Shown in pieces: positions 1 through 61,360 of a stretch of 64,000 bases of DNA. Under the pieces are notes generated by a model. It was not told the origin of the DNA and did no database searches. It saw only the letters and a list, made by a program, of their open reading frames with translations. The position numbers and the translations under genes are program-made. The stretch lies in NCBI GenBank assembly GCA_951406725.2, contig OX597814.1:150288001-150352000 (forward strand), given 5' to 3'. This stretch comes from Octopus vulgaris (Eukaryota). Numbering within the stretch: position 1 is the stretch's first letter; the number at the start of each line of letters is the position of its first letter.

Positions 1-508
1 AAAGTAGATTGCAGAACAGCTACAATCCTAAGGTTATCACGTGGTTATATAAGTATATATTCACCTTTCTTGCCTCCTATATATGGTTCATAGATTCCTC
101 TTGAAATAATTTCATCGATCGGATTCGGATCTTGTGGACTTTAGCTGCATGTATACTATATATATATATATATATATATATATATATATATATATATATA
201 TATATATATATATATATATATATAAAGTTAATCCAAACAAGAAAACACAGAAAAAAACACAGCAACACGAGGACGTGGAACAATTAAAGTATTATTTGAC
301 GCTCAGGGAAGAAGATGCATACACACACACACACACACACACACATATATATATATATATATATATATAGATCAATAAATGGTGGGGTTGTGTTGACCGC
401 ACGTGGAGAAATGATAAGTAAGGAAAAATTTTTTTAAAAATGCAGAATGCTCAAATGAAAGAAAATTTTAATAAAATGAGAAATTGATAAAATATATAAA
501 TATATATT

Positions 509-549
509 TATTCAACCGGTTTTCGTCATTGTACGACTTGTCAAGAATA
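509..549 (-). ncRNA. Hammerhead-like motif, left-arm copy
   Basis: Reverse complement is TATTC-TTGACAA-GTCGT/ACA/ATGAC-GAAA-ACCGGT-T-GAATA. It differs from the right arm only by A-U to G-U in stem II. Confidence 0.75.
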
Positions 550-1176
550 TTTATGTTTTAAAAAGTTTTTTTTTAAATTAGAAAGGGGAAAAAAAGAAAA
601 TTGCATTGTTTTTTGTAAAAGAATAATGATAAAAATGTACAAAAATTAAAAATAAGTTCTCCGATACATTGTGAGTTCGTTGTGTATCTTGAGTTTTATG
701 GTTGTTTACGAAAAAATTACCTTGAGGTGTTAAGATCCAAAGGGATTAAGAGCATGTGTTGTGTTGTTAAATTCAGCATGTTTGCAGGACAGGAAGTAGT
801 AGTAATTGTGGTCCTGGTTCTTCAGTTCCTGTGTTGTGAGTAAGGGGAGACAACTCTTTTGAGTTCTTCAATAAAACCCAAATTATAAAATTATCATTTT
901 AGCTTCATTTGCGTTATCTTTTTTATATAATTGCTTGTTAACTTAACTTTCAGATTTTAACACTTTATTTATATTATTTTCTAATTATATAAATCTGCAT
1001 AGACAATTGCATTTCAAATTGTCATATCATTTATAATAAAAATGATAGTAATAACAACAATAGTAAAAATGATACTTAAAGAATATAAGTTTTAGCTTGA
1101 AGTGATGAATGCATGGTATCTTTAAATATTTGTGTTAGTCCATCCATGAAGAGTGAGGTAGAGAAAGGAAGTTTGA

Positions 1177-3309
1177 TCAACGAGGAGTTTGCATATTAAG
1201 TTGTGTTTGGAATTTTTCAATAAAGAGATTCTCCTTGTTAATTCTCTCCTGTGTGGTGATCCCGTCTTTACATTGGTAGAAGGGGAATATATAGAATTTG
1301 GGGTTTAAGTCTTTAGCACATGAGTCTAAGTGGTCACTCAGTGGAATTTGTCGGTATTCCGGGAGATTTATTTGTTCTTTATGCACCGTTACTCGTTTAC
1401 GTAACGGGAGACTCGTTTGTCCAACATAATTATGTTGGCAACCAGCGCATGTGAGAACGTAGATAAGGTTCTCGGAGGAACAGGAGAAGTTAGTCTTGAT
1501 TTTAAACTTCGTACCTTGTTTGAAGGTAAATTCAGAGCCTTCAAGTAGAAAGGGGCAGGTACCACAGTTTGAGCGTGCACATTTTTTTACTGTTGGGGGT
1601 GGATGTGGTGTGTGAAGTTTGGCAGGCATTTGTCAAGAGTTTTTTTAAAGATTTGTGTTGCCTTTTGCATTTGAGGATTTTGTGTGTATTTATAATGTTT
1701 TTCATTTTTGGGTCTGTTGACAGTAAACTGAGGTTTTGTATGATTGTGGTGTATGCTTCGATATTTTTGGGGTTGTGGGTGGAAATGTATGGAAGTATTT
1801 TGAGGTTGTGTGTGGTGTTAGGTTGGGTGGTTTTCAGTGTAGTGTTGTCTAGTTCTTTGGCGCGTTTTATTCCATACTCTATAAGGGTGGAGGGATATTG
1901 ACGTTGTAATAGTGTTTTTTTGAGGTCTTGAAGGCGTATTTCTCGTGTTTTTGGATCCGAGACAATGGTGCATACCCTTTTAGCTAAATTGAAAGGGATA
2001 TTTGTCTTGGTGTGTTTTGGGTGGCATGAACTAAAGAGGAGGTATTGTTGTGAGTCTGTAGGTTTGTGGTAGATGTCTGTTATGATTTGGTTCTTAGGTG
2101 TTTTTATAATTAGGAGATCAAGGAATGGGAGATGATGTTTGCTTAATTCCATAGTGAATTGGATGTTGGGATGTATGTTGTTTAGTATGGTTTTGAATTC
2201 CAGGAGTTTTTCATAAGGTTCTTTCCATATGATGAAACAATCATCTAAATACCTTTTCCAGTTTTCCATTAGGTAGGTGTGGAAAACATGTCCAAATTTC
2301 TGGCTTGATATTTCATAGAGTGACAGTTCGAAGTAACCCATTATGAGGTTCGCAAGGACTGGTGCAGCCTTGGTACCCATCGCAATGCCACATTTTTGAC
2401 GGTAGTGTGTGTCGTCGAAGAGAAAAAAATTGTTTGTCAGAATGAACTTGAGAGATTCTGTAATAAAAGACTTGTTAATGCGGTCAGGGAATATCTCTGG
2501 GTGTTTTTCTAGCCAGAAGTCAATTGCCTCTATACCATACTCATGTGGAATGTTGGTGTAGAGGTTGATGACATCAAAGGATACCAGGAGTGCCTCCTCG
2601 TTAACTGTTTTCGGGAGGTGTTTGAGCATGTCCAGATCATCCCTAATGAAACTTTTGATGTGGGTAAGGAAAGGTTTCAAAAGGATGTCTAGGAAGTTAC
2701 TCAGGCGGTGTGTTTCACAGGAGGTACCAGCCACGATGGGCCTTAGTTTTAGGTCCTCCGGTGCTTTGATGTTGATGTGGATGTCAGTGGAGAGTTTGCA
2801 GGCTTCGGTGATGTATTTGTTTTTATGGATTTTAGGAAGGCCATAAAAAGGCTGGGCTTGCATTTGAAAATGGTGATATAATCCCTTTCTTTTTCTGTGA
2901 GTCCCTGACCGTGTTGGCGTATGAGTGTGGTGAGGTTTCTGATTGTTTTTTGCTGTTTGTAGTTGTTAATAACCTCATAGAAAATGTTATTGTTAAGCAT
3001 GGAAAACACTAGGTGTTTATAAAATTCCGTGTCCATAAGGACCACAGCACTCCCTTTGTCCGCTTCTTTGATGGTGAGGTTTTTATCCAGTTGTATGTCA
3101 CGTAGGTTTTCCCATTCTTCCTTACTGAAATTGGATTTTACCTTGGTTTTGCTTGGGGTAAAGGGGAGACTCTGGATGTGTTTGCAGAAATCGTCCAGTG
3201 TTTTATTTCTCCCTTTTGGTGGTAGGAAGTTGCTTTTATTTCTGATCAATGAATCGTCCCCATTGTTGATATCTGTCAAAGCTTCTGTTAGGCGAAGTTT
3301 TCTGCAGAA
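1177..3309 (-). pseudogene. Inverted, 5'-truncated copy of the PLE RT/GIY-YIG coding region
   Basis: ORFs 2749-3324, 1541-2863 and 1177-1629 give the same peptides as the + copy. It has an extra 1-nt homopolymer deletion near 2845 and shares the TGCC duplication. Confidence 0.92.
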
Positions 3310-58891: not shown

Positions 58892-59449
58892 GGCGTGTGA
58901 TCTACAAGGGAGATTACTTTAGGTTACTTTTTAGTTTACTTTCCAATTTCTAAAATCTCATTATATGTTAACTAAAGATTTTTGCAATGTGATCATCAAC
59001 GAGACGAAGGCATTTTAACAAAAAACCAAAAGGCAGTTGCGTTTTTACAAGAAACCAGCACTAAATTCACATCATTTCTTAAGGAAAAGAAACGTGCTAC
59101 TTTGCTGACTGACCTACAATTTAAACAGAGATCACTNNNNNNNNNNNNNNNNNNNNNNNNNNNNNNNNNNNNNNNNNNNNNNNNNNNNNNNNNNNNNNNN
59201 NNNNNNNNNNNNNNNNNNNNNNNNNNNNNNNNNNNNTTAGGTTATTTTTTAGTTTACTTTGCGTTAGTGCTACTTTCCGTGTGATCTACGTGAGCAAATT
59301 TACTTTGGTGAGTGATTCACGCGCTTATTTTAATTATTAACTGGTTTTCTTATTATTAAAACAGTAAGAATTTAAAAGAAAATACATTTAGCATGTACAA
59401 AATAATTCTAAAAGTAACCTAAAGTAATCTCCCTTGTAGATAACACGCC
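58892..59449. mobile_element. MITE-like inverted repeat spanning the assembly gap
   Basis: GGCGTGTGATCTACAAGGGAGATTACTTTAGGTTACTTTT pairs with AAAAGTAACCTAAAGTAATCTCCCTTGTAGATAACACGCC. Confidence 0.6.
59137..59236. other. Assembly gap (100 N)
   Basis: Run of N. Confidence 1.
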
Positions 59450-60344
59450 GAAATATGCATGGTCAACTATATACATGATATCAGCTATTGCAGTTAATCA
59501 GTGTTAACTATTGCAGTTAATCAGTGTTAATTGCAGTTAATCAGTGTTAACTTACTTTGATATTACCTTGTCTAAAATGCTTCGAATAATATGGTGGCTA
59601 TATTGATAAAAACTAGAATCATACAGGTCTATGTATACCTCAGTACACTGTCAAAAGTATTATTAAATTCTATACTGAATGACTGATTCCCGTTCCGTTC
59701 ACTTTGTTTCACAGATTTCTGCCGAAATACCCCGACACCCTCTCACAAGGACATTCATAATTACTCCCTATATCTGTACATTACTTCTTCTATTCATACC
59801 TTCTTCTTTTGGAGTCAAAGAAGAAGGCTGCAATCTAGCAAATAATGAAGAGAAAAACATCCTTTTTCTTTCTCACGATTTGTCGAAAGAAAAATAATCC
59901 GAAACTTCAGATGCTTCGCTGCTAAAAAAAAAAAGTCAAGCTTATCCAACTCTTCTGAACTCTCCTACGCTGGCTGTCATATTCCTGTGATAGATATTAC
60001 CAGTTTTTTTCTGATACCGGATTTTACTCTACTCTTTCAAAATTTTCAGTGTCATTACAGTTAACCTTCGCAAAATCTAAGATTGCTCTTACGGAGTCTT
60101 GAAAACTACTCTTCACACACACACGCACACACACGCAGACATACACACACACAGATATACACACGCAAACACACACACGCGCACACGCACGCGTGCACAT
60201 GCGTACACGTATTGCTTTGTCCATTATCACGGGCAATGCAGGATACTATTAGCTGTATATAGTTAAAAAAAAAAACACACACACACATAATTATGTATGT
60301 ATTCTATCTTTTTGTCTCTCTATCTTTATATATTGTTTTATTCT

Positions 60345-61360
60345 TTTATTTGATTCAGTCAATTGACTGCGGTCATGCTGGACAAATCGACCCCAGAACT
60401 TATTCTTTGTAACCCAAGCACTTATTCTATCGGTGTCTTTACCGAACCGCTAAGTTACGGTGACGTAAACACACCAGCATCGGTTGTCAAGCGACGGTGG
60501 GGATGCAAACACAGACACACAAATACATACATACATACATACATACATACATACATACATAATACATACATGCATACATAAATATATATATATATCAATA
60601 AATGGTGGGGTTGTGTTGACCGCACGTAGAGAAATGATAAGAGAGGAAAAATTATAAGAAGGCAGAATGCTAAATTGAAAGTAAATTTTAATAAAAATGG
60701 GTGTATGGAAAATTAAAAAAAGAAAAAATAATAAATCAAACCGGTTTTCATTGCAAAGCAAATTATCAAGATTTGGAAGGCTAAAAGAAATATTTTTTGA
60801 AATTGCTTAGTTTAAGCACCACTTTTAAATCACATGGATCTTATTCCTCCAAAGTAAGTTTTCCAAGGACTATTATTGAACTCTAAAAGTATAAAGACCC
60901 TACAATGTATCGGTTTACTTATTTATTAATTTTTGTATATGTTTATTATTATTATGTTTTTGAAAAAAAAACATTGTAAATTTCTTTTTTCCCTTTCCTC
61001 AGTTTAAAAAAACATTTTTCCCCTTCCAAATCTTGATAATTTGCTTTGCGATGAAAACCGATTTGATTTATTATTTTTTTCTTTTTAATTTTCCATACAC
61101 CCATTTTTATTAACATTTAATTTAATTTCAATTTATATTTCTGCCATCTTATAATTTTTCCTCTCCTATATATATATATATATATATATATATATATATA
61201 CGACAGTCTTCTGTCAGTTTCAGTCTACCAAATCCACTCACAAGGCTTTGGTCGACCCGAGGTTATAGTAGAAGACACCTGCTCAAGGTGCCACGCAGTG
61301 GGACTGAACCCGGAACCATGTGTTTGGTAAGCAGGCCACTTACCACACATCCACGCCTGC
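60345..61360 (-). mobile_element. SINE family A copy split by the PLE-related insertion in its internal microsatellite
   Basis: The tail half is at ~60345-60520 and the head half at ~61201-61360, in the same orientation. Confidence 0.75.
60594..61165. mobile_element. Non-autonomous PLE-related element: tail 60594-60640, inverted arms 60641-60780 and 61022-61165, each with a hammerhead-like motif (60733-60774 -, 61028-61069 +)
   Basis: The tail is nearly identical to 371-416. The motif is AAATC-TTGATAA-TTTGC/TTT/GCAAT-GAAA-ACCGGT-TT-GATTT. It sits in the (TA)n tract of a SINE. Confidence 0.85.

Follow-up and report, generated by a model that had tools for sequence, protein, structure and literature searches.

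The stretch of DNA analysed here, referred to as the window, is 64,000 nucleotides (nt) of the Octopus vulgaris genome (contig OX597814.1, positions 150,288,001 to 150,352,000), in which a Penelope-like element (PLE) at 371-7411 is accompanied by a set of small repeats bearing hammerhead ribozyme motifs. An original prediction, made from the letters alone, had counted about a dozen hammerheads, and each of the fourteen sites that it named does hold a motif of type I hammerhead shape, displaced by a few nt at most. The motifs sort into ten repeat families, called A, A′ and B to I (Table 1), with two members each in families A (509 and 7282), C (21134 and 22351), A′ (60733 and 61028) and I (55488 and 57175). 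Sequence comparison makes it likely that they are the hammerheads of the pseudo-long terminal repeats (pseudo-LTRs) of about ten PLE families, most being ends, 5′-truncated or inverted, of coding elements that sit in (TA)n, and that the motif at 31687 sits in an exact, intron-less copy of a Hydra-type 3′ repeat, probably reverse-transcribed from a short spliced transcript.

Table 1. Hammerhead-bearing elements of the window, by family (RT stands for reverse transcriptase and ORF for open reading frame)
Feature	Positions	Strand	Remarks
Family A, PLE 'tail' (optional 3′ extension)	371-423	-	adjoins (TA)n; found behind the 3′ end of many copies and, in tandem locus L002, in front of ORF1
Family A, inverted, 5′-truncated PLE arm	424-3309	-	copy of 4520-7407
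Family A, pseudo-LTR hammerhead-like motif	509-549	-	U3-A8; cleavage site preceded by one additional nt
Family A, forward Neptune-type PLE copy	3310-7411	+	truncated ORF1; RT 4388-6289; GIY-YIG 6198-6653; 3′ repeat ending in (TA)n
Family A, hammerhead-like motif	7282-7322	+	
Family H, short element with clustered 5′ end	8223-8433	+	motif 8292-8326 (U4C); no coding parent found
Family C, tail with inverted and forward 5′-truncated ends of an autonomous Neptune-type PLE	21007-22485		motifs 21130-21174 (-) and 22348-22392 (+)
Family B, 3′ end of an autonomous Neptune-type PLE	25244-25415 (5′ limit approximate)	-	complete U3-A8 motif 25297-25336
Family D, 5′-truncated end of an autonomous PLE	26907-27756 (5′ limit approximate)	-	motif 27036-27073, A6U
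Family E, short element, putative spliced Hydra-type PLE 3′ repeat	31660-31926	+	exon junction 31679|31680; canonical hammerhead 31687-31738; tail of about 76 nt; ends in (TA)n
Family G, partial 535-nt non-coding monomer preceded by a short inverted piece	54760-55138	+	canonical hammerhead 54806-54881
Family F, 3′ end of a decayed Hydra-type PLE	55225-55300	-	motif 55257-55296 (U4C, A6G)
Family I, partial copy	55301-55540	+	dead motif 55487-55534 (G5A)
Family I, 3′ end	57173-57325	+	weak U3-A8 motif 57173-57222
Family A′, tail with inverted and forward 3′ ends	60594-61166		motifs 60733-60774 (-) and 61028-61069 (+)

The long copies of family E contain a GT-AG intron (1,316 nt in locus L360, at 4332-5647), the acceptor of which lies 6 nt before stem I of the hammerhead, and the window copy joins exon 1 to exon 2 exactly. 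Among the 30 closest E loci two retain the intron and the others have the joined form. Exon 1 is at most 77 nt long in 38/38 spliced junctions and at most 45 nt in 37 of them, the query imposing no penalty on a longer one, whilst 19/19 intron-bearing donors extend at least 298 nt upstream. The donor reads GTAAGT, GTACGT or GTATGT across divergent subfamilies, and the breakpoints of the joined form coincide with this consensus donor and with a pyrimidine-rich AG acceptor. Moreover, the exon-1 and exon-2 variants of the spliced copies match three different intron-bearing subfamilies. In a tree of 72 exon-2 rows the spliced copies fall into three groups, all of which include unspliced members, one set being identical, and the starred branches require three or more changes of label, with rough support (5 of 63 branches starred, the bootstrap not settled). 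The short copies of E, like those of G, H and D-like elements, have clustered 5′ ends. At or near these clusters in the four families stand the words TTAGT, TCAGT or TCATT (as at L333:5723 in G and L391:5258 in E), which are candidate initiator-like sequences.

A coding parent of E can be followed on copies L391 and L352 with L386, where a Hydra-type endonuclease (EN), the 3′ untranslated region (UTR), the intron, the hammerhead and (TA)n are contiguous, and sequence resembling an RT thumb is present in L390. The path to this parent led upstream from two variant copies of E to an EN with a CxCx5C linker, which as a query then linked family F, in which an RT thumb and a CxCx5C EN remnant lie 370 nt upstream in L331/L206 (one of 20 loci). 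The linkage test consisted of translated searches of the 1.5-kb flanks of family loci, and because queries with Neptune-type proteins did not pick up parents of Hydra type, the first counts of 0/30 loci for E and 0/20 for F were false negatives. The translations of L382, L391 and L390 contain the CxCx5C linker, no CCHH motif, and CxxC and CxH near the E and N residues, whilst for F the linker was read in L331; the Hydra label of both families was assigned from these EN motifs, on copies recovered without the RT N-terminus, where the clade has its DKT and RWK motifs. The same linker, the CxxC and CxH around a conserved E/N, a canonical hammerhead and (TA)n insertions characterise the Hydra-clade PLEs as described by Craig et al. 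(2021, PMC8557442). In that account Hydra-clade elements are generally shorter than 3 kb, whereas E has a 3′ UTR of 2.1-2.75 kb with an intron of 0.9-1.4 kb, and abundant spliced short copies are not part of the clade's description there (section 11).

In seven of the ten families other copies continue, upstream and without change of strand, into an RT and/or GIY-YIG coding sequence of Penelope-like type that belongs to the family itself; besides the Hydra-type E and F these are A, A′, B, C and D, which are of Neptune type. The link was seen in nine of 20 loci for A (two being the window's own arms), 8/20 for A′, 7/25 for B, 13/25 for C and 7/20 for D. Family I is probably an eighth, as an inverted Neptune-type RT-EN arm, read in decayed translation, adjoins the copy in L178 (one of 20 loci). 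Open RT-EN frames of 775 amino acids (aa; family C, L320 and L321) and 762 aa (family B, L317) were found, and family A matches the Pfam models RVT_1 (7e-08) and GIY-YIG (1.7e-04, just under the cut-off). The structure is that of EN-bearing (EN+) PLEs, with tandem units (pseudo-LTR, ORF, pseudo-LTR in family C, L321; family D, L322), head-to-head inversions and an optional 3′ tail, and each family has two 3′ end-points. In tandem loci L002 and L321 the next unit begins with the tail.

Alignment and motif scans of families A to D identified the Cx2-5CxxC linker (Cx4CxxC in their ENs), a CCHH-type EN motif and DKG. The Neptune label is given by motifs and does not separate Neptune from Nematis; the linker is common to both, and the Cx4CxxC type is described for the two in PMC8557442. 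A, A′, B, C, D and probably I resemble the Neptune-clade EN+ PLEs (Arkhipova 2006, summarised in PMC8557442) in their C-terminal GIY-YIG, linker, CCHH-type residues, DKG and, for B and C, GLKF, and also in the pseudo-LTR hammerhead, the tail, the inversions and the microsatellite targets (PMC8557442). Unlike the elements of that description, several young families here have family-wide changes of the hammerhead core (A6U, A13C, an extra A).

Family A is young, its genomic copies being 98-100% identical, and A′ is an older relative with an EN at 79-87% on the amino acid level. The peaks of 5′ ends at 133 in A and 128 in A′ turned out to be cross-family alignment breaks and not true ends. The window copy of A begins inside ORF1 and has a frameshift between RT and EN that is absent from L326. 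It had been proposed as the driver of the surrounding repeats, a role that its truncation and broken frame speak against. The wider proposal that PLE RT/GIY-YIG is the mobilising machinery is supported, and so are the assignment of the motifs to PLE-type minimal hammerheads and the ending of the families in (TA)n. The claim that most motifs belong to distinct non-coding families moved in trans mostly fails, as seven of the ten families have an RT and/or EN of their own upstream, and the original prediction overlooked both the E intron and the Hydra-type parents. Judged from these alignments, most motifs of the window are 5′-truncated or inverted PLE ends, which is a known pattern.

The type I core (C3 U4 G5 A6 N7 G8 A9 / G12 A13 A14 A15 / U16 H17, or a U3-A8 version, with helices I and II) is complete in only four motifs, in the C3-G8 form at 31687 and 54806 and in the U3-A8 form at 60733 and 25291, the last with a stem I of 3 bp only. 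Three motifs are weak, 61028 through a broken palindrome, 57175 through short stems and 55253 through U4C and a private A6G that take it outside the core, and 55488 is dead (G5A). The remaining six depart from the core by changes that alignments of the 20-30 closest genomic copies per family found to be family-wide. In family A (509/7282) there is an extra A before the palindrome, or a G at the cleavage position, in 20/20 copies; in family C (21134/22351) GCAA replaces GAAA (A13C) in 25/25; in family D (27036) A6 is replaced in 20/20, by U in the window motif; and in family H (8293) U4C prevails, with one canonical row among 14 distinct rows listed, from 25 copies. U4C is likewise present in most family copies at 55253. 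The odd cores are family traits and not private decay, and the young families among those concerned have copies that are 98-100% identical. U4C is reported as a natural variant of low activity and A6C as slow (PMC3088659).

The stems had been described as unrelated, which holds in part; 8293 and 27036 are alike in stem II/III and 7282 and 61028 in stem III. Covariation within a family, which had been put forward as a check, was found in G, where the two sides of stem I change together in 21 of the 23 copies scored (CG/CG in seven, TG/CA in fourteen), both changes also being CpG-decay types. The motifs resemble the minimal PLE hammerheads of Cervera and de la Pena (2014, PMC4209133) in the short palindromic helix III, the covariant U3-A8, the solo motifs from truncated PLEs, the opposite-strand pairs 100-700 bp apart and the position of the Drosophila virilis intron, which ends at helix I. 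In that account the intron is retained in genomic copies, whereas the genome studied here has copies from which it is precisely spliced.

Motifs of the D/H-like lineage are very common, with 28 D-like and 18 H-like matches in an 800-kb sample of the genome (random stretches L242-L308). In this unbiased sample position 6 is not A, with N7 variable, in 14 of 27 matches, many having U, which suggests that the U6 core is an old, maintained variant. Extra hammerhead families absent from the window occur at L238, L239, L271, L272, L289 and L304, several with long stem II inserts and a palindromic helix III of 4-10 nt.

The reported closeness of the motifs to (TA)n holds at the 3′ junctions of the families but is not specific at the scale of the window. 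With one site per family, the median distance to (TA)6+ is 106 nt against a background of 680 nt (P=0.0013), but 15 SINE-like (short interspersed nuclear element-like) copies in the window have a median distance of 154 nt from TA, so that proximity at this level is not peculiar to the hammerhead families. Two such repeats, often beside microsatellites, are present in more than 12 copies (7498-7700, 24340-24512, 29943-30132, 37372-37528, 41279-41739, 55942-56399, 60331-60502, 62977-63371 and others). At the junctions, with every query cut at the window's own TA run, a (TA)5+ run is found no more than 15 nt away from the 3′ end in 156 of the 235 family loci (background 5.6%) and, with the optional tail allowed for, within 110 nt in 211 (background 12.9%). 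Family I is the exception (7/20 loci). Eleven of its 20 loci (L182-L188, L192-L195; G000:C28, 6.6-18 Mb) are on one chromosome and have long flanks in common; they lie inside a larger duplicated unit, which lowers the TA-junction count of the family. Family H has TA on the 5′ side too in 19 of 25 copies (background 7.2%), which would agree with a target existing before insertion.

In the mechanism proposed here, the RT/GIY-YIG protein of each family would nick (TA)n and prime cDNA synthesis at 'tail' sites. The purified anole PLE protein nicks AT-rich DNA and starts reverse transcription internally, at two tail sites on sense RNA (PMC11167929). Transcription would begin at an internal promoter in the pseudo-LTR, some 25-35 nt before the E splice donor. 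In Penelope of D. virilis the promoter lies in the pseudo-LTR, 46 nt separate the start site from the intron (PMC2377424), and this intron runs as far as helix I of the hammerhead (PMC4209133); a similar arrangement is described for Chlamys-3 (PMC8557442). The cap-proximal intron would be removed by splicing, and short copies of about 270 nt with a fixed 5′ end would result from priming at the tail that follows closely downstream, whilst priming at the downstream repeat would give long, randomly truncated copies that keep the intron. The short spliced RNA may be the 5′ end of the full mRNA or may come from solo pseudo-LTRs or from spliced masters, all of which are alike compatible. As copies keep the whole hammerhead, their templates were probably uncleaved, and since young families also tolerate core changes, cleavage is probably not needed for insertion and catalysis is likely to be dispensable. 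The anole protein inserts uncleaved RNA, and a dead hammerhead is no obstacle to it (PMC11167929). Few 5′ ends fall at the cleavage site (-4 to +6), with two in A at one locus, one in D, three in E and three in F, the signal in C and F being swamped by TA tails. Family G, and perhaps H, may have been turned into self-standing non-autonomous families moved in trans.

A more specific version is offered tentatively, at somewhat less than even chances. The two pseudo-LTR copies of one PLE transcript may be treated differently, splicing of the cap-proximal intron and priming at the 5′-proximal tail producing the short retrocopies and priming at the downstream repeat the full-length elements with intron, and the lineage-wide A6U core with a free N7 may be a tolerated natural variant. 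The spliced genomic copies speak for the use of sense RNA as template at least sometimes, whereas an antisense template has been put forward to explain intron retention in PLEs (PMC3846280). If the two-repeat model is true, it explains intron retention without an antisense template, demonstrates the use of spliced sense RNA in vivo and describes how SINE-like and retrozyme-like families may arise from PLEs time and again. As spliced copies with a fixed 5′ end stand beside long copies that have the intron and belong to the same subfamilies, the strand used as template, the start site and the site of priming become directly testable in one family, and the young families with broken cores are a natural test of whether PLE hammerheads must cleave.

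The bulk of the finding extends the known picture of truncated PLE ends to a new genome, the new part being the spliced, 5′-delimited PLE retrocopies. Targeting of (TA)n, the PLE tail and the existence of non-autonomous PLEs have already been described (PMC8557442), and Penelope expansions in octopus have been noted (PMC8967140). A description of cephalopod hammerheads, or of spliced or intron-less PLE copies, was not found in the openly readable literature, mostly judged from listings, Repbase and subscription papers being outside its scope.

The best surviving rival, although an unlikely one, holds that most motifs represent independent non-coding families, retrozyme-like or consisting of a pseudo-LTR only, which multiply through hammerhead-cleaved (circular) RNA and are moved in trans by a PLE such as that at 371-7411. 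Dimer cleavage of hammerheads has been reviewed (PMC6765202), retrozymes are described from mussels (PMC7229834), and animal retrozymes have been argued to stem from PLEs, as non-autonomous derivatives (bioRxiv 10.64898/2026.07.22.740005). Family G comes closest, having a non-coding monomer of 535 nt in head-to-tail partial tandems, a canonical hammerhead and no RT/EN upstream in any of 30 loci, a negative that may be false, as it once was for E and F. The 5′ end of family H is strongly clustered, 39 of 54 matches beginning 65-77 nt upstream of the core, with older copies running up to 266 nt upstream into CA-rich sequence, and none of its 25 loci gave an RT/EN parent, a result open to the same error. 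The short E copies are also non-coding. The parents of A to F are not, and seven or eight of the ten families have a coding parent, the PLE of the window is frameshifted and copies keep the whole motif. The paired motifs of inverted copies lie on opposite strands and hence cannot dimerise in one transcript. The G tandems reach 1.2 units at most with one hammerhead per strand, and a same-strand two-hammerhead unit was not seen in the loci examined, where no copy extends beyond roughly 320 nt on the upstream side of the core; no search for arrays in other parts of the genome was made.

G in particular, and H and short E in part, resemble non-LTR retrozymes (PMC7229834; bioRxiv 10.64898/2026.07.22.740005) and MRC1, one of the non-autonomous Chlamys elements (PMC8557442, section 10), in being short, non-coding, derived from a hammerhead or pseudo-LTR and dependent on PLEs, and differ from them in having PLE tails, inversions and (TA)n targeting. 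Only G appears to fit the retrozyme-like reading of the original prediction, and possibly H; the other families do not, and the short element at 31687 is non-coding but would have been spliced from a coding parent. An EN match about 4 kb upstream of G copy L333 was discarded as unrelated, its nucleotide sequence matching no other G locus. Beside the G element of the window, an open frame at 54044-54565 (-), without Pfam match, resembles the C-terminus of a non-PLE long interspersed nuclear element RT and is unrelated to G. A second, shorter 3′ fragment of H (226-314, -; 86% to 8339-8433) lies between TA/CA runs.

Slightly less probable again is that the short form of E arose by deletion at the DNA level across the AG|GT microhomology, or by a single ancient splicing event in one master that was then amplified, in either case saying nothing of ongoing RNA processing. 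AG|GT does occur on both sides of the junction (4 nt), which makes such a deletion conceivable, the data are genomic only and the exon-2 tree is short and weakly resolved. The exact agreement of the breakpoints with donor and acceptor, and the presence in spliced copies of variants from three intron-bearing subfamilies, argue instead for splicing. Beyond the microhomology, other points weigh against the main reading of the motifs as PLE ends and of short E as a spliced retrocopy. A full-length intact E parent with an RT core was not recovered, L390 breaking off, and the parent links of F and I come from one locus each. Splice junctions were not found in scans of the other nine families. Four contig-only sequencing runs (no RNA) contain no exact E joint, with one near-miss skip (4278-5646) in X1, which speaks neither for nor against splicing. 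The searches score the 40 best matches only and are thus biased to close copies, and the initiator-like hexamers near the clustered 5′ ends were noticed in hindsight. The difference in exon-1 length between the 38 spliced junctions and the 19 intron-bearing donors is not a valid statistical test because the two sets were ascertained differently, the intron-bearing one with upstream and intron queries and so long by design, and because its rows are not independent, several being one insertion.

The strict descriptor matches the window three times (31687, 54806 and 60733); when filters for the palindrome and stem I are applied, 100 local dinucleotide shuffles give no match at all (mean 0.42 and maximum 3 at the loosest setting). 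In 80 evenly spaced 10-kb stretches of the genome there are 11 strict matches against a shuffle mean of 0.08 and a maximum of 1 (12 shuffles), which extrapolates to some 38,000 strict motifs per genome, and a frequency above that of shuffled sequence was what had been anticipated. That the motifs are random matches, close to TA merely because the genome is rich in microsatellites, is largely refuted by these comparisons and the junction enrichment, and is exceedingly improbable given also the constant position of the motif near the 3′ end of each family and the paired stem switch in G, even though there are about 1.1 (TA)6+ runs per kb, the SINE-like copies are likewise close to TA, the folding energies of single motifs are mostly unremarkable (z from -2.05 to +0.38) and a hammerhead is not among the 150 of 167 rows listed from an Rfam scan at E<=1, those rows being microsatellite-driven miRNA and snoRNA noise.

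The window also contains a mariner-type transposase remnant (23609-24064, -; Pfam HTH_48) and an inverted pair of 1.2-kb repeats that are 79% identical (16171-17347 and 28210-29392). A local duplication of 96-97% (24631-25634 and 25776-26673), which has the family B fragment in one copy only, is adjoined by a 390-nt palindrome at 26487-26879. An assembly gap of 100 N occupies 59136-59235.

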